Shown here piece after piece: positions 2,993 through 47,808 of a stretch of 64,000 nt of DNA (the first letter of the stretch is position 1; each line of letters begins with the position of its first letter). Location: NCBI RefSeq assembly GCF_003334355.1, contig NZ_QOWP01000014.1; one strand, 5' to 3'. Under the pieces are notes generated by a model, which saw only the letters and a program-made list of their open reading frames with translations, did not search any database and was not told the origin of the DNA. This DNA comes from Escherichia coli. GTDB lineage: Bacteria; Pseudomonadota; Gammaproteobacteria; Enterobacterales; Enterobacteriaceae. The position numbers were made by a program, and so were the translations under genes.

Positions 2993-3015
2993 CATTTGTC
3001 TGATGCCGCACGTAG

Positions 3016-3211
3016 GCCTGATAAGACGCGGGCAGCGTCGCATCAGGCATCTTGTGCAAATGTCGGATGCGGCGTGAACGCCTTATCTGACCTACAAAAA
3101 CAAATTTATCAATGAGTTATAAATCCCTGTAGGCCTGATAAGACGCGCCAGCGTCGCATCAGGCATCGTGTGCGAATGTCAGATGCGGCGAAAACGCCTT
3201 ATCTGACATAC
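3016..3211. repeat. REP/BIME cluster of four REP copies in alternating orientation
   Basis: Copies of gcctgataagacgcg..cagcgtcgcatcaggc and gatgcggcg.aacgccttatctgac at 3016-3048, 3065-3095, 3133-3164 and 3182-3211. Confidence 0.85.
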
Positions 3212-3611: not shown

Positions 3612-3635
3612 AAAAAAGGCGCAGAATCCTGCGCC
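3612..3635 (-). terminator. Intrinsic terminator-like hairpin downstream of secA
   Basis: Minus-strand stem ggcgcag/ctgcgcc followed by a U-tract, immediately before the mutT start. Confidence 0.5.
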
Positions 3636-3656
3636 TTTTACTTTAACAGTTAGCTT

Positions 3657-6362
3657 TTATTGCAGGCGGCCATGGCACTGCTTGTATTTTTTACCAGAAC
3701 CGCACGGGCAAGGATCGTTACGTCCTACTTTGCGCTCTCCAGTTTGCGCCGCCAGTGCAGCTGCGGCTGCAGAGTCGTCATCCTGATGGCTAAGCTGCTG
3801 CATTTGCGCTAAACGCTCGGCTTCCATACGACGCTGTTGTTCCAGCTCCTCAACCTCTTCAGGCATACGTACCTGGACTTTGCTCAACGTGCTGATAACT
3901 TCATATTTTAACGACTCCAGCATCGCTGCAAACATGGAGAACGATTCACGTTTGTATTCCTGCTTCGGATCTTTCTGTGCGTAGCCACGCAGGTGGATAC
4001 CCTGACGCAGATAGTCCATCGCTGCCAGGTGCTCTTTCCACAGGGAGTCAAGCGTTTGCAGCATGACGCCTTTCTCGAAGTGACGCATCATCTCAGCACC
4101 AACCACTTCTTCTTTACGCTGATACACTTCGATGGACTGCGCCAGAATTCGCTCACGCAGCGTCTCTTCATGCAGTTCTGGTTCTTTATCCAGCCACTCG
4201 GCAATTGGCAAATCGAGGTCGAAATCGTTCTTCAGACGTTCCTGCAGCCCCGGAATATCCCACATTTCTTCCAGCGACTGTGGTGGAATGTAGGCATCAA
4301 TGGTCGCTTTGAACACATCTTCACGAATGCTGTTAATGGTTTCGCTCACATCGCTGACATCCAACAGTTCGTTACGCTGGGAGTAAATGGCGCGACGCTG
4401 ATCGTTAGCCACGTCATCATATTCCAGCAGTTGCTTACGAATGTCGAAGTTACGGCTTTCAACTTTACGCTGGGCGTTGGCAATCGCTTTAGTCACCCAC
4501 GGGTGTTCAATGGCTTCGCCTGGCTTCATACCCAGTTTACGCATCATGCCGGATACTCGGTCGGAAGCAAAAATACGCATCAGCGCATCTTCCATCGACA
4601 GGTAGAAACGGGAAGAACCAGCATCCCCCTGACGACCAGAACGACCGCGCAACTGGTTATCGATACGACGGGATTCGTGACGCTCGGTACCGATGATATG
4701 CAGGCCACCTGCTTCCAGTACCGCATCGTGACGTACCTGCCAGTCGGCTTTAATTTTTTCAATTTGCTCTGCGGTCGGATTTTCCAGCGCGGCAACTTCT
4801 GCCTGCCAGCTACCACCGAGCACAATATCTGTACCACGACCCGCCATATTGGTCGCGATAGTCACCGCAGCCGGATAACCTGCCTGAGCAACAATCGCCG
4901 CTTCGTTGGCGTGGAATTTGGCGTTCAGGACGTTGTGCTTAATACCGGCTTTGGTCAGTTCGTTTGACACCAGCTCCGATTTTTCGATGGAGATAGTACC
5001 CACCAGCACCGGCTGGCCTTTCGCAGTACGTTCTTTGATATCTTCAATGATCGCCTGAATTTTTTCCGCTTCAGTCATGTAGACCAGGTCCGGCAGATCT
5101 TTACGAATCATTGGACGGTTGGTCGGAACAACGACGGTATCCAGCTTGTAGATTGAGCTAAATTCGAAAGCTTCGGTATCAGCAGTACCGGTCATCCCCG
5201 CCAGTTTTTCATACAGACGGAAGTAGTTCTGGAAGGTGATCGAAGCCAGCGTTTGGTTTTCGTTCTGGATCTGCACACCTTCTTTCGCTTCCACAGCCTG
5301 GTGCAGACCATCGGACCAGCGACGGCCCTGCATGGTACGACCGGTGTGTTCGTCAACGATGATAACTTCACCATCTTTAACGATGTAGTCGACGTCACGG
5401 GTAAACAGCGCATGAGCGCGCAGCGCCGCCGTTACGTGGTGCATCAGCATGATGTTGGCCGGAGAGTACAGAGACTCCCCTTCATCCATGATGCCCTCTT
5501 TCACCAGCAGTTCTTCAATCAGCACCAGACCACGTTCGGTCAGGTTCACCTGGCGAGATTTTTCGTCCACCGAGAAGTGGCCTTCGCCCTGGAAGGTTTC
5601 GGAGTCTTCTTTTTCCTGACGGATCAGGTGCGGAATAATTTTATTCACGCGTTTATACATTTCCGAGCTGTCTTCTGCCGGGCCGGAAATGATCAGCGGT
5701 GTACGCGCTTCATCGATCAGGATGGAGTCCACTTCGTCCACCAGCGCATAGTGCAGTTTACGCTGTACACGTTCTTCAGGGCTGAACGCCATGTTGTCGC
5801 GCAGGTAGTCAAAGCCGTATTCGTTGTTCGTACCGTAAGTGATGTCAGCTGCGTAAGCTTCGCGCTTTGCCGGTGCTGGCATGCCCGGCAGGTTGATACC
5901 GACAGTCAGGCCAAGGAATTCAAACAGCGGACGGTTGTTTTCGGCGTCACGTTGCGCCAGGTAGTCGTTGACGGTAACTACGTGCACGCCTTTACCGGTT
6001 AGTGCGTTCAGGTAAGCAGGCAGCGTTGCGGTCAGGGTTTTACCTTCACCGGTACGCATTTCGGCGATGCAGCGTTCGTTAAGAACCATACCGCCGAGTA
6101 ACTGAACGTCGAAGTGACGCATACCAAAGACGCGCTTACTTGCCTCACGTACCACGGCGAAAGCTTCCGGGATCAGATTTTCCAGCACTTCGCCTTTTTC
6201 CAGACGTGCACGAAACTCTGCGGTTTTCCCTTTCAGTTCTTCGTCGGAGAGTTTTTCCATCTCCGGTTCCATGGCATTGATGATGTTGACCACTTTGCGC
6301 ATCCGGCGCAGGGTGCGATCGTTACGACTACCGAAAACTTTAGTTAATAATTTGATTAGCAT
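3657..6362 (-). CDS. secA: Preprotein translocase ATPase SecA
   Basis: 901-aa ORF; C-terminal zinc-binding [14 protein letters not shown]; recognised as E. coli SecA. Confidence 0.97.
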
Positions 6363-6423: not shown

Positions 6424-7140
<717 letters not shown>

Positions 7141-8184: not shown

Positions 8185-9336
8185 TTAATCAGCTTGCTTA
8201 CGCAGGAATGCTGGAATATCCAGATAATCCGGCTCTTTCGCAGTTTGCGGCGCATTGTCATTCACGACTTTAGCAATCGGCTTCTGCTCCTGGGTCAGCG
8301 GAGCCATCCCGTGCTGCTGGTAGCGATCCATCACTGGCTGCTGAACCTGCTTATTGGTCACCAGAGTGATTTCAGGACGTTTGTCCATGCCGATACCTGT
8401 CGCAACAACAGTTACGCGCAGCTCGTCATTCATATCCGGGTCAAGAGAAGTACCGATAACCACGGTCGCGTTGTCGGAAGCAAATGCACGGATGGTGTTA
8501 CCTACCGTTTCGAACTCATCCAGACGCAGGTCGAAGCCCGCTGTGATGTTAACCAGCACGCCGCGTGCGCCAGACAGGTCGATATCTTCCAGCAGCGGAG
8601 AAGAGATAGCCATTTCAGCAGCTTCTTCCGCACGGTCTTCACCGCTCGCCACGCCAGAACCCATCATTGCGTAGCCCATTTCAGACATTACGGTGCGTAC
8701 GTCTGCAAAGTCCACGTTCATCAAACCCGGACGAGTAATCAGTTCAGCGATACCTTGCACAGCGCCTTTCAGTACATCGTTCGCTGCGCCAAACGCATCC
8801 AGCAGGGAGATACCGCGGCCCAGAACTTTCAGCAGTTTGTCGTTCGGGATAGTGATCAGAGAGTCCACATGCTTGGACAGTTCAGTGATCCCCTGCTCCG
8901 CGAATGCCATACGCTTCTTGCCTTCAAAGTTGAAAGGCTTAGTGACGACAGCAACGGTCAGGATACCCAAATCTTTTGCCACTTCAGCGACGACTGGTGC
9001 TGCACCTGTACCGGTACCACCACCCATACCCGCAGCAATAAAGACCATGTCTGCACCTTCCAGCGCAGCACGCAATGCATCGCGATCCTCATCAGCCGCA
9101 TTGCGGCCAACTTCTGGATTAGCGCCAGCGCCCAGTCCTTTGGTGATACCGCTACCGATTTGAATCGTCTGTCCAACCGCTGTTTTACGCAGCGCTTGTG
9201 CATCGGTATTTACCGCGAAGAATTCAACACCTTCAATGCGCTCACGCACCATGTGTTCAACAGCATTACCGCCGCCGCCGCCGACGCCGATGACTTTAAT
9301 CACCGCGTCATTGGTAAGTTCCATTGGTTCAAACAT
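8185..9336 (-). CDS. ftsZ: Cell division GTPase FtsZ
   Basis: 383 aa; tubulin signature GGGTGTG; C-terminal [14 protein letters not shown]. Confidence 0.98.
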
Positions 9337-9396
9337 AGTTTCTCTCCGATTTGTGCCTGTCGCCTGAGGCCGTAATCATCGTCGGCCTCATAAAAA

Positions 9397-10659
9397 TTAA
9401 AACTCTTTTCGCAGCCAACTATTGAGTCGCTTGATCCACGAGCCAACTGATGCTGTAACACGTTTTTCTACTTCAGCTTCACCGTTAAGATGTGACTCTT
9501 TCCCATAGTGAAGCAATCCCACCGCCGTCGAATAATACGGCTCCTGAGCATAATCCGTTAAACCGGTAATGTTCAGCGGCGCGCCGATACGCACTTGCGT
9601 ATGAAACACGCGCTGAGCACAGGCTGCAAGACCTTCGATCTGCGCTGCGCCACCGGTTAATACAATGCCTGCCGCCAGGTGATGTTTAACCCCTTGTTGG
9701 CGAAGCTTTTCCTGCAACTGCAATATCTCTTCGTTGACCAGGTTGAGCAGCTCGGTATAGCGCGGCTCGATCACCTCTGCCAGGGTCTGACGTTGCAGAC
9801 TCCGCGGCGGACGACCACCTACGCTCGGCACTTCCACGCTCTCATCTTTTCCAACGATGGAACCCAGCGCACAACCGTGGCGAACTTTAATCGCTTCGGC
9901 GTCGCTTGGCGGCGTGCCAAAGGCGTAAGCGATATCACTGGTCACGACATTGCCAGCATAAGGAATTACCTTAGTGTGGCGCAATGCCCCACCGGTATAA
10001 ACGGCGATATCCATTGTACCACCACCGATATCGACGACGCAGACACCCAGTTCACGTTCATCTTCCGTCAATACCGAATAACTTGATGCCAGTCCGGCAA
10101 ATATCAGTTGGTCAACTTTCAGCCCACAACGTTCAACCGCTTTGACGATGTTTTTCGCCATATCGTTGTGACATGTGATCAGGTGCACTTTTGCCTGCAT
10201 CCGCACGCCCGAAAGTCCTACCGGATTCTTGATCCCTTCCTGATAGTCAATCGCATACTCTTGCGGGATCACATGCAGCACACGATGCTCATCGCGCACA
10301 CGCACCGATTTCGCGGTGTGGACGACGTTTTCCACATCTTCTTGCGTTACTTCTTCTTCAGAAATAGGCACCATACCAATTTCATTCTGGCAGCTGATGT
10401 GCTTACCAGAAAGCGCCAGATATACCGAAGAGATCTGACAATCTGCCATCAATTCTGCCTGGTCAATGGCGCGTTGTACGCACTTGACCACGGATTCGAG
10501 GTCGTTCACCCCGCCTTTATCCATACCACGCGACGGGCAGCTGCCCACGCCAATGATATTGACCATACCGTCGGGCAGAACTTCCCCTACTAAAGCGGCA
10601 ACCTTCGCGGTACCAATCTCCAGTCCTACTACCAGTTTTCTGTCCGTCGCCTTGATCAT
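9397..10659 (-). CDS. ftsA: Cell division protein FtsA (actin-like ATPase)
   Basis: 420 aa recognised as FtsA; start overlaps ftsQ stop. Confidence 0.97.
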
Positions 10660-29328: not shown

Positions 29329-30273
29329 TTAGCGTTTGCAAATTGAGACTAATTGCTCTTCCATCCACTGATGGCCTTTATCGCGCCCGGCAGCTTCATG
29401 CCAGGAGAGATAACAGGTTCTGCTGTTTTGTTTTAACGGCAGCGGTAATACCTGTAATTCTAAGGATTCAGCGAACTCTTCAGCCAGCCAACGCGGCGCA
29501 ATAGCGACCAAATGCGTTTGCGACACCACGCTAAGTACGCTCATCATTGCCATGCCCTGATACGCGATACTGGCTTGCTTATCTACCGTGTCATACCAAG
29601 GTTGACTAAATGACGCGAAACGATCGAGCGAAACCGCCGCATGTTGTTCGTTATAAACATCATGTTTCAGTAACGGGCCCTTAATTGTTGGATGATTTTT
29701 GCTGGCTACCAGCACCATTTCATCTTTAAATAATGGTACGCTGGTAAATTCAGGACGATGGAAGTCTTCATAACTAATCACAAACTCCGTTTCCTGATAA
29801 CGCAGCTGATGTTCAGTGTTCTGATTTAATGAAGACTTGAACATAACATGTATATTTGGCGCAATCTGCTCAATGTGATTATAAATCTGCGAGGTCAGAA
29901 TGCTGTCTAACGGGCTGCAAACACAAAGATGAAATACACGTTCACTGCTCGCGGGTTCAAAACCTGAACCAGGCAATTCATTTTGTACTAGTTGCAATGC
30001 CTGACGAACTGAACCAAAAAGTTGAAATGCGCGAGCAGTCGGTTGAATACCACGGCCATAACGAACAAAAAGCTCGTCATTAAACATCACCTTCAGGCGT
30101 GCAACAGCGTTACTGACCGCAGGTTGCGACATTCCCAGAACATGAGCGGCACGAGTAATGTTTTGCTCCTGCATCACGGCATCGAAAACGGTTAATAAGT
30201 TGAGATCGACCATGCGTAGCTGTGGCTTGCTTAACTCCGCCGTCTCTGGATGATCTGTTTGTACCTCTGGCAT
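29329..30273 (-). CDS. leuO: LysR-type transcriptional regulator LeuO
   Basis: 314 aa from [27 protein letters not shown]. Confidence 0.93.
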
Positions 30274-30932
30274 ACTTAACTCCACTGTCACACTTAACTC
30301 CCTTTCCCTTATTGGAATGCAGAGAAATAATCCTCGAGAATATGATTTATCATGCATATAAAATAAGAAAAAGGAAAATGAGTAAAATTAGGAAAACATA
30401 AAGATACGGGTTCTGATAAAAACAGAATCCATTGCCGTGGAATGAGTCATTTACCACAGCATAATAATCCATAATGTTTTTGTTGCGAAAACAATCTAAT
30501 CATAACTACCGCGAATACTCAATCATCTACAAAATGGATTAAATGTGCTTATTTAATAATTAATTTATATATTTAATGCATTAATTCTTAACATTAATTG
30601 ATCAATAATATTCACCAAATCAATATCAAAAAAAATCGCAAAACATATAATTCAATACAAATCATCAGGATAGGTTTTGCAACGCGTGCATTTTGTCCCC
30701 TTTTTCCTCGTTGATTAGATGCAAAAATTTATGCTGAAATATGTCAACCGATGAAAAGCGTCGGTAGTTAAGCAGAAATTAATATCGCTTACTTTAACCA
30801 CCGCAGCACAATTAGCTAATTTTACGGATGCAGAACTCACGCTGGCGGGACGTTTTTATTGCGTCAGGGTTGACATCCGTTTTTGTATCCAGTAACTCTA
30901 AAAGCATATCGCATTCATCTGGAGCTGATTTA

Positions 30933-31019
30933 ATGACTCACATCGTTCGCTTTATCGGTCTACTACTACTAAACGCATCTTCTTTGCGCGGTAGACGAGT
31001 GAGCGGCATCCAGCATTAA
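30933..31019 (+). CDS. leuL: leu operon leader peptide
   Basis: 28-aa [28 protein letters not shown] with four consecutive CUA Leu codons. Confidence 0.9.
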
Positions 31020-31043
31020 GCCAGCACGCAGTCAAACAAAAAA

Positions 31044-31068
31044 CCCGCGCCATTGCGCGGGTTTTTTT
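31044..31068 (+). terminator. leu attenuator terminator
   Basis: Hairpin cccgcgc/gcgcggg followed by T7, between leuL and leuA. Confidence 0.85.
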
Positions 31069-31111
31069 ATGCCCGAAGCGAGGCGCTCTAAAAGAGACAA
31101 GGACCCAAACC

Positions 31112-33774
<2,663 letters not shown>

Positions 33775-37047: not shown

Positions 37048-37274
37048 AAAAAAAACCAGCAGGTATAATCTGCTGGCGGGTGATTTTACACCAATACTCA
37101 GTCACACATGATGCAGGCAAGTCAACTTTCAGAATTGCGGTCATCCCACTGCATCAGTCCTTCAAGCATGGTTAATCGTTGTGGGACGCTTAACCAACGC
37201 AACCAGCACAACTTCGCTGTCGCGGTAAAATAGTGCTGATAAAACTGACGCATGGGGCACCTCCTTGCTTCATC
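37048..37274 (-). ncRNA. sgrS: SgrS small RNA (glucose-phosphate stress), dual-function, with intrinsic terminator at its 3' end
   Basis: About 227 nt, divergent from sgrR; contains the sgrT ORF; 3' hairpin ccagcagattatacctgctgg followed by U8. Confidence 0.85.
37122..37253 (-). CDS. sgrT: SgrT small protein (glucose uptake inhibitor) encoded within SgrS
   Basis: 43 aa MRQFYQHYFTATAKLCWLRWLSVPQRLTMLEGLMQWDDRNSES. Confidence 0.85.
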   Translation of the reverse strand: MRQFYQHYFTATAKLCWLRWLSVPQRLTMLEGLMQWDDRNSES

Positions 37275-39029: not shown

Positions 39030-39125
39030 GCCGTTCTCAACGGGGTGCCACGCAAACGCGTGCGCTGAGAAAATACCCGTCGAACCTGATCCGGATAACG
39101 CCGGCGAAGGGATTTGAGGCTCCTT
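39030..39125 (+). promoter_or_regulatory. sroA: TPP (THI-box) riboswitch in the thiBPQ leader (sroA)
   Basis: Conserved elements ggggtgcc, ctgaga and aacctgatccggataacgccggcgaaggga directly upstream of thiB. Confidence 0.85.
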
Positions 39126-39160
39126 CTCAAGTCCTTTGCCACTCTTTTTTGAGGTGCAAA

Positions 39161-44493: not shown

Positions 44494-46293
<1,800 letters not shown>

Positions 46294-46303
46294 GGACACG
46301 ATA

Positions 46304-47806
46304 ATGACGATTTTTGATAATTATGAAGTGTGGTTTGTCATTGGCAGCCAGCATCTGTATGGCCCGGAAACCCTGCGTCAGGTCACCCAACATGCCGAGC
46401 ACGTTGTTAATGCGCTGAATACGGAAGCGAAACTGCCCTGCAAACTGGTGTTGAAACCGCTGGGCACCACGCCGGATGAAATCACCGCTATTTGCCGCGA
46501 CGCGAATTACGACGATCGTTGCGCTGGTCTGGTGGTGTGGCTGCACACCTTCTCCCCGGCCAAAATGTGGATCAACGGCCTGACCATGCTCAACAAACCG
46601 TTGCTGCAATTCCACACCCAGTTCAACGCGGCGCTGCCGTGGGACAGTATCGATATGGACTTTATGAACCTGAACCAGACTGCACATGGCGGTCGCGAGT
46701 TCGGCTTCATTGGCGCGCGTATGCGTCAGCAACATGCCGTCGTTACCGGTCACTGGCAGGATAAACAAGCCCATGAGCGTATCGGCTCCTGGATGCGTCA
46801 GGCGGTTTCTAAACAGGATACCCGTCATCTGAAAGTCTGCCGTTTTGGCGATAACATGCGTGAAGTGGCGGTCACCGATGGTGATAAAGTTGCCGCACAG
46901 ATCAAGTTCGGTTTCTCCGTCAATACCTGGGCGGTTGGCGATCTGGTGCAGGTGGTGAACTCCATCAGCGACGGCGATGTTAACGCGCTGGTCGATGAGT
47001 ACGAAAGCTGCTACACCATGACGCCTGCAACACAAATCCACGGCGAAAAACGACAGAACGTGCTGGAAGCGGCGCGTATTGAGCTGGGGATGAAGCGTTT
47101 CCTGGAACAAGGTGGCTTCCACGCGTTCACCACCACCTTTGAAGATTTGCACGGTCTGAAACAGCTTCCAGGTCTGGCCGTACAGCGTCTGATGCAGCAG
47201 GGTTACGGCTTTGCGGGCGAAGGCGACTGGAAAACCGCCGCCCTGCTTCGCATCATGAAGGTGATGTCAACCGGTCTGCAGGGCGGCACCTCCTTTATGG
47301 AGGACTACACCTATCACTTCGAGAAAGGTAATGACCTGGTGCTCGGCTCCCATATGCTGGAAGTCTGCCCGTCGATTGCCGTAGAAGAGAAACCGATCCT
47401 CGACGTTCAGCATCTCGGTATTGGTGGTAAGGACGATCCTGCCCGACTGATCTTCAATACCCAAACCGGTCCAGCGATTGTCGCCAGCCTGATTGATCTC
47501 GGCGATCGTTACCGTCTGCTGGTTAACTGTATCGACACGGTGAAAACACCGCACTCCCTGCCGAAACTGCCGGTGGCGAATGCGCTGTGGAAAGCGCAAC
47601 CGGATCTGCCAACTGCTTCCGAAGCGTGGATCCTCGCTGGTGGCGCGCACCATACCGTCTTCAGCCATGCGCTGAACCTCAACGATATGCGCCAGTTCGC
47701 CGAGATGCACGACATTGAAATCACGGTGATTGATAACGACACCCGCCTGCCAGCGTTTAAAGACGCACTGCGCTGGAACGAAGTGTATTACGGATTTCGT
47801 CGCTAA
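46304..47806 (+). CDS. araA: L-arabinose isomerase
   Basis: 500 aa from [20 protein letters not shown]. Confidence 0.97.
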
Positions 47807-47808
47807 GT

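Follow-up and report, generated by a model that had tools for sequence, protein, structure and literature searches.

Anatomy, ribosome-dependent folding and conservation of the leu operon attenuator of Escherichia coli

Introduction

Does the short leucine-rich reading frame in front of leuA, with the hairpin and T run that follow it, make up a switch in which the position of a ribosome decides whether transcription enters the leucine biosynthesis genes? The question was raised by an earlier note on a 64-kb stretch of Escherichia coli DNA (the window; all positions refer to it), which had read the locus as a classical attenuation layout. We identify the element, with a probability of about 0.97, as the leuL attenuator, which controls transcription of the E. 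coli leuLABCD operon by classical ribosome-mediated attenuation. Its anatomy, its family, its three exclusive structures, their dependence on the ribosome in silico and their conservation are results of the present analysis. The leu attenuator is already known, and the element is real but ordinary; we make no claim to new biology. It serves here as a positive control, a classical cis-regulatory element recognised from raw sequence with exact coordinates.

Results

Identity and genomic context

The whole window was scanned against Rfam 15 (all 4227 families). RF00512 (Leu_leader) matched positions 30919-31068 on the plus strand over model positions 1-148 of 148, with 145.8 bits (gathering score 50) and E = 4.5e-32. 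The functional element begins 5' of the box drawn by the earlier note, which started at the leuL ATG: the Rfam model runs from 30919 and includes the Shine-Dalgarno sequence GGAG (30921-30924, plus strand, 8 nt 5' of the ATG). The 501 bases from 30700 to 31200 matched RefSeq E. coli DNA carrying the leuL/leuA annotation at 100% identity, and 5400 of the 5426 complete E. coli genomes contain this region. The first regulated gene, leuA (2-isopropylmalate synthase), occupies 31112-32683 on the plus strand, ahead of leuB, leuC and leuD, which have the same orientation. The gene order, with ilvI and leuO (minus) followed by leuL-leuA-leuB-leuC-leuD (plus), is the standard E. coli arrangement in reverse orientation. 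The divergent gene leuO (29329-30357, minus strand) is upstream, with an AT-rich spacer of 575 bp between it and leuL.

To judge from its sequence, the source background is an E. coli other than K-12: outside the element, the window is ~99.3% identical to a K-12 derivative. Two segments distinguished the window from the K-12-derived reference JME66: a 3.5-kb segment at 44569-48108, apparently araB-araA, that is absent from JME66, and ~117 bp with a REP-like repeat at ~54954-55070, where JME66 carries a 1.5-kb segment of yabP, yabQ and a transposase remnant.

Other elements in the window

The Rfam scan returned several further matches. Just past leuD and setA is SgrS sRNA (37048-37274, minus strand, 230.7 bits, with sgrT inside), and thiB has a TPP riboswitch (39031-39130, plus strand, 66.1 bits) on its 5' side; the two elements are known and occupy their customary positions. 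STnc40 matched the secA-mutT spacer (3612-3681, minus strand), and four naRNA4 matches (3015-3092 and 3132-3208 on the minus strand, 47966-48031 and 54977-55055 on the plus strand) were taken as REP-type intergenic repeats. PssrA (RF02797, 'plasmid-encoded Shigella sRNA A') matched at full length with 105.5 bits at 9328-9417 on the minus strand. By mapping to an annotated reference, this match covers the 3' end of ftsA, the ftsA-ftsZ spacer and the first ftsZ codons on the sense strand, an oddity in that a family described from plasmids matches a core chromosomal cell-division locus. The window also holds secM (~6424-6936, minus strand, by mapping to the reference), a translation-arrest leader that regulates secA and hence a second, mechanistically different ribosome-stalling cis-regulator.

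The leader reading frame and its control codons

The leuL leader peptide is encoded at 30933-31019 on the plus strand by 28 codons, from the ATG at 30933 to the TAA at 31017-31019, and the RefSeq annotation on identical DNA reads 'leuL, leu operon leader peptide' (WP_001300467.1). Direct reading and translation confirmed the four consecutive CUA leucine codons that the earlier note had seen in the leader peptide; they are codons 10-13 (30960-30971, plus strand). The coordinates stated by the note are all correct. CTACTACTACTA occurs as a single copy in the window, against 0.00 expected from 100 dinucleotide-preserving shuffles. CTA is the rarest leucine codon in the 40 long open reading frames of the window (63 of 1806 Leu codons, 3.5%), and under this gene usage the chance of four CTA codons in tandem is ~1.5e-6. 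A second run, (CTA)3 at 58244-58252 on the plus strand, is unrelated: by reference mapping it falls inside lptD, out of frame, and its triplets are not Leu codons. A mechanical list of open reading frames also gave a longer leuL of 63 aa from an in-frame ATG at 30828; that start lies 5' of the probable -35 hexamer and is unsupported, and the annotated 28-aa frame is the real one.

Codons 21-22 of leuL are the rare Arg codons AGA and CGA (30993-30998, plus strand), with local usages of 0.8 and 3.4 per 1000 codons. The AGA (30993-30995) sits in a strand of the protector stem-loop described below, GGUAGAC, whose partner GUCUACU belongs to the Gly-Leu codons. Base pairing in the protector probably dictates the AGA codon, and a second amino-acid input need not be invoked. 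In the folding scan by ribosome position, a ribosome stalled at AGA CGA would cover the antiterminator arm.

Promoter elements were read from the sequence. A probable -35 hexamer of the leu promoter, TTGACA, lies at 30870-30875, and a weak -10 candidate, TAACTC, at 30893-30898, both on the plus strand and separated by a 17-bp spacer. A consensus promoter scanner made no call for the leu promoter at leuL, because the -10 is poor. Transcription presumably starts at ~30906, 27 nt 5' of the leuL ATG, a position that we take from database knowledge of E. coli leuLp. According to the classical literature the leu leader RNA is roughly 160 nt long, and a start at ~30906 would give a leader of ~161-163 nt, which is consistent with that length.

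The intrinsic terminator

The attenuator proper is an intrinsic terminator at 31038-31068 on the plus strand, with a 13-bp stem (31038-31050 / 31055-31067). Its GC core, CCCGCGC / GCGCGGG (31044-31050 / 31055-31061), closes on a CAUU loop, and A:U pairs extend the stem to 31038-31067. The isolated hairpin has an energy of -20.2 kcal/mol. The T7 run occupies 31062-31068, with 43 nt from there to the leuA ATG (31112); the distance from the leuL stop to the leuA ATG is 92 nt. The hairpin and T7 run had been placed 25 nt downstream of the leader frame; this distance agrees when counted from the final base of the TAA (31019) to the first base of the GC core (31044).

A simple consensus terminator scanner did not list the leu attenuator. 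Going by the stated rule of the tool, it most likely missed it in that pairs between the A run and the T run lengthen the stem and consume the T tail that the rule demands. Its sole terminator-like hit, a 6-bp minus-strand hairpin at 31118-31102, overlaps the start of leuA and was disregarded.

Protector, pause site and antiterminator

The structure of the ribosome-free RNA is a protector stem-loop at 30943-31006 (plus strand), found alike in the minimum free energy (MFE) structure, the centroid and the Rfam consensus structure, with an isolated energy of -21.5 kcal/mol. Its lower stem pairs 30943-30952 with 30997-31006, its upper stem pairs 30958-30964 (GUCUACU) with 30990-30996 (GGUAGAC), and its apical pause hairpin pairs 30974-30977 with 30985-30988. 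Outer helices that bring the Shine-Dalgarno and AUG region against 31012-31031 were just 54-65% paired across the alignment, and sequestration of the Shine-Dalgarno sequence is not claimed.

A polymerase pause site with U31000 at -1, G31001 at +1 and G30991 at -10 (31000-31001, plus strand) lies 12 nt past the apical hairpin and was the sole match to the G-10/Y-1/G+1 pattern within 30985-31045. The 50-nt leuL pause template in the supplement of a published study (PMC9291695) corresponds to window positions 30952-31001, and its hairpin to 30974-30977 / 30985-30988. The site found independently here matches the published leuL pause.

The 5' arm of the antiterminator (preemptor) is GCGCGG at 30986-30991 (plus strand), within codons 18-20 (uuG CGC GGu, the conserved Arg-Gly). 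Its 3' arm, CCGCGC at 31045-31050 (plus strand), is a shared segment that also forms the terminator 5' arm. The partners of each arm are mutually exclusive: 30986-30991 pairs either within the protector, with 30963-30964 and 30974-30976, or with 31045-31050, and 31045-31050 pairs either with 30986-30991 in the antiterminator or with 31055-31060 in the terminator. The isolated energy of the antiterminator with its inner hairpin is -19.9 kcal/mol.

Ribosome position and the choice of structure

The whole leader (30906-31072) folded at -56 kcal/mol, compared with -38.3 +/- 3.9 for shuffled sequences (z = -4.56), into the terminator and a long protector stem-loop that spans 30919-31031 and is best conserved at 30943-31006, the same fold as the Rfam consensus. 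When a 30-nt ribosome mask was laid over the Leu codons or the stop codon of this full-length leader, the terminator was present in every MFE structure and the two ribosome positions were not discriminated. The terminator persists in these folds because its 13-bp stem wins at equilibrium, as is expected of a kinetic switch. A plain fold of 30933-31110 had been proposed by the earlier note as the way to see the alternative hairpins. In this form the proposal failed, the terminator winning always; the alternative hairpins did appear once the nascent RNA was truncated and the ribosome masked. To take the absence of mutually exclusive hairpins on folding as a refutation, as the note had suggested, could therefore, taken literally, give a false negative.

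Nascent transcripts were folded with the RNA ending at 31051 or 31054, i.e. before the 3' arm of the terminator exists. When the ribosome was placed on the first CUA codons, GCGCGG (30986-30991) paired with CCGCGC (31045-31050). A mask restricted to the ribosome footprint was abandoned: when the third or fourth CUA codon occupied the A site, RNA behind the ribosome paired with RNA ahead of it in the MFE structure, which is sterically implausible. In the final scan, every A-site position was taken in turn, all RNA 5' of the ribosome leading edge was masked, and the nascent RNA extended to 31054. The probability of the 6-bp antiterminator was 0.000 with no ribosome, and at least 0.93 with the A site on codons 5-13 (0.97-0.98 at the CUA codons 10-13); at codon 14 it was 0.81, and no position from codon 15 onward exceeded 0.004. 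The Leu codons are therefore the last stall positions that leave the antiterminator arm free. The pattern was stable for leading-edge offsets of 10-18 nt. In the folding model, the leader thus has three mutually exclusive states, and ribosome position sets the choice among them.

A control confined to the window sequence replaced the 60 nt that separate the ribosome edge from the GC-rich arm by dinucleotide shuffles, and 21 of 300 shuffles matched or exceeded the observed arm pairing (0.85; shuffle mean 0.64). This single-sequence folding statistic is weak, insignificant by itself and barely above chance. The lesson for automated attenuator checks is that full-leader equilibrium folding hides the antiterminator, and that ribosome-masked nascent folds together with comparative data decide.

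Conservation across species

A DNA-pattern scan of 100,044 species genomes required CTACTACTA with a conserved leuA start 150-180 nt downstream and yielded 120 loci, nearly all with a short Leu-run reading frame and a terminator. As the retrieval pattern demanded CTACTACTA upstream of leuA, leaders with other Leu codons were left out. The Enterobacterales-type set comprised 92 leaders, 91 from other genomes and the window's own. All 92 carry a run of 3-4 Leu codons. Across them the median pairing probability of the terminator 5' arm was 0.11 with no ribosome, 0.85 with a stalled ribosome and 0.01 with the ribosome at the stop codon, and 90 of the 92 switched in the sense that this probability was > 0.8 when stalled and < 0.2 at the stop. 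The partner of the arm was always (G)CGCGG in codons 17-19, at a fixed distance of 4-5 codons past the Leu run, and the Arg-Gly of the LeuL peptide is conserved because this partner occupies those codons.

The same switching behaviour was found in 2 of 11 Aeromonadales-type leaders, in which the predictions frequently had the arm paired with no ribosome present or with the ribosome at the stop codon, and in 5 of 13 leaders classed as other, a group that includes probable chance matches. Outside the Enterobacterales, a Leu-run reading frame with a terminator 5' of leuA was seen in Comamonadaceae and other betaproteobacteria (L006, L023, L071, L079, L080 and L089), in Chitinimonas (L043 and L091) and in Botrimarina of the Planctomycetes (L056). 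Four further loci (L031, L070, L086 and L112, among them two Liquorilactobacillus) encode peptides that end in FALLL before the stop codon, with a long hairpin 62-65 nt downstream.

Pairs were counted in a MAFFT alignment of 98 distinct leaders. The terminator helix was paired in 94.9% of cells; its core is invariant in 87 Enterobacterales leaders, and in the remaining 11 a compensatory CG-to-UA change preserves the pairing. In these 11 Aeromonadales-type leaders the shared arm changes from C to U, and the terminator partner changes from G to A in 11/11; the antiterminator partner is A in 3 and leaves a G.U pair in 8. The antiterminator helix was paired in 98 of 98 leaders (100%). Its arms are near-invariant, and invariant pairs are uninformative in either direction; the covariation that it does show fits the model but is thin, coming from a single variable column that probably reflects no more than one or two evolutionary events. 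The upper protector helices were 94.2% and 95.9% paired, with compensatory changes at pair 44:85 (UA in 53, CG in 25) and at pair 62:75 (AU in 78, GC in 9). The inner hairpin of the antiterminated form was 53.7% paired across species, too little for a conserved feature.

Published experiments on the same sequence

Real stalling, termination, leucine specificity and pausing rest on published work with this same E. coli sequence. Ribosome profiling shows that ribosomes pause on the four CUA codons in leuL, and RNA-seq density falls 29-fold from leuL to leuA, reduced to a 4-fold fall once stalling is induced; a leuL-leuA'-nLuc reporter was activated 11.5-fold, and 2.7-fold when the four CUA codons were replaced by UUA (bioRxiv 10.1101/2021.05.27.446073). 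The 29-fold drop in RNA supports the activity of the terminator. In a fusion of the E. coli leuL 5'UTR to GFP, leucine represses and glycine does not (PMC2836559). The polymerase pauses after the 'protector' hairpin with a half-life of 27.9 s, which NusA raises 1.7-fold; pausing was not restored by compensatory mutants in that study (PMC9291695). The published profiling, reporter and pausing data agree with the attenuation model.

Discussion

Proposed mechanism

In what follows, where exactly transcription starts and how the steps are timed relative to one another are inferred. Transcription would begin ~27 nt 5' of leuL. Once the hairpin at 30974-30988 forms, the polymerase would pause at ~31000 and so give time for a ribosome to load on leuL. 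The outcome would then be set by the supply of charged tRNA-Leu, specifically of the minor tRNA-Leu that decodes CUA. Under leucine shortage, the ribosome would stall with its A site on one of the four CUA codons (30960-30971); the stalled footprint would keep the 5' strand of the protector single-stranded and stop short of GCGCGG (30986-30991), and the freed GCGCGG would pair with CCGCGC (31045-31050) once this is transcribed, blocking the terminator and allowing readthrough into leuABCD. When leucine is plentiful, the ribosome would advance, its footprint lying over GCGCGG from codon 15, and the terminator (31038-31067) with its U7 run would form and stop transcription at ~31068. If the leader is not translated, GCGCGG would stay locked in the protector (30943-31006), and termination would follow as well.

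The reading as a classical attenuation layout is borne out by the Rfam match, the RefSeq annotation of leuL, the position-dependent exclusive pairings, the switch in 90 of 92 leaders, the pair counts across 98 leaders and the published experiments. Nothing contradicts the attenuation model, and its in-silico support has limits.

Alternative explanations

Three other accounts of leucine control at this locus were weighed, and each is given very little credence. The leader is highly structured, and many leu operons of Firmicutes are T-box controlled, so that a direct RNA sensor might be at work, either a T-box reading uncharged tRNA-Leu or a leucine riboswitch, with the ribosome not acting as the sensor. 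This account is highly improbable: Leu_leader was the only Rfam family found at the locus, the T-box family (RF00230) had zero matches at the gathering threshold anywhere in the 64-kb window, and no riboswitch match fell at the leu locus. The leader of ~160 nt is also without a specifier loop or T-box architecture, the in-silico switch depends wholly on ribosome position, and the synonymous change from CUA to UUA alters regulation, which would be unexpected if a ligand or tRNA-anticodon sensor acted on a different element. Just as improbable is mainly Rho-dependent polarity, in which Rho would act on the RNA left untranslated ahead of leuA once the leader ribosome has terminated at the TAA, and the hairpin would be secondary. 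Uncoupling of translation from transcription is a general route to Rho action, and 92 nt do separate the leuL stop from the leuA ATG, but this spacer is not C-rich and is short. A canonical intrinsic terminator, with its 13-bp stem and U7, stands exactly at the 29-fold RNA-seq drop, and the core of that terminator is invariant in 87 Enterobacterales leaders, the remaining 11 keeping it paired through a compensatory change.

It is equally hard to credit that the terminator is constitutive or leaky, with leucine control exerted solely at the promoter (by LeuO, Lrp or H-NS in the leuO-leuL spacer) and the reading frame incidental and untranslated. The divergent leuO upstream, the AT-rich 575-bp spacer and the weak single-sequence folding statistic would all sit well with such an arrangement. 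They are outweighed by the retention of the reading frame, the Leu run, the frame and the fixed antiterminator distance in 92 Enterobacterales-type leaders, and in a different form in other orders, as well as by a chance expectation of ~0 for four tandem CTA codons. Experiment points the same way: ribosome footprints on CUA and a codon-specific reporter effect have been published (bioRxiv 10.1101/2021.05.27.446073), and a promoter-independent 5'UTR fusion is still repressed by leucine (PMC2836559).

Ribosome-mediated attenuation thus remains the preferred reading, and what may be asked is whether something is added to it. By analogy with the trp attenuator RNA rnTrpL and the peptide peTrpL of Sinorhizobium, for which functions in trans have been shown, the abundant terminated leader RNA of ~160 nt (30906-31068) or the 28-aa LeuL might have a second function in trans, or the AGA-CGA pair might give arginine-dependent super-attenuation. 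We hold such additions to be very unlikely, if somewhat less so than the three accounts above; the conserved C-terminal half of LeuL and the AGA are adequately explained by the GGUAGAC / GUCUACU pairing in the protector.

Relation to known systems

The element is the same as leuL of E. coli K-12 and Salmonella: 30700-31200 is identical to K-12-derived genomes, with the same peptide, four CUA codons, protector, preemptor, terminator and pause template. Set against K-12 leuL, the element itself shows no differences, and only the surrounding window is non-K-12. The E. coli and Salmonella leuL leader-attenuator was reportedly described by Gemmill et al. in 1979, Wessler and Calvo in 1981, Carter et al. 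in 1986 and Bartkus et al. in 1991.

The trpL, hisL, pheL, thrL and ilvL leaders share its logic of a leader reading frame with tandem codons, a synchronising pause hairpin, mutually exclusive antiterminator and terminator, and termination without translation. leuL differs from them in that its control codons are Leu, all of them the rare CUA. Its antiterminator is a long-range 6-bp GC helix that closes a ~53-nt loop with a poorly conserved hairpin of its own, whereas that of trp is the compact 2:3 hairpin. Further afield, LeuL of Vibrio cholerae (PMC2836559) and the leaders of Staphylococcus aureus (PMC5794164), Aeromonas, Comamonadaceae and Liquorilactobacillus have the same short Leu-run reading frame and intrinsic terminator 5' of leuA, but their peptide and terminator sequences are unrelated to those of leuL. 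These Leu-rich leaders outside the Enterobacterales are analogues or very distant relatives of leuL rather than members of RF00512.
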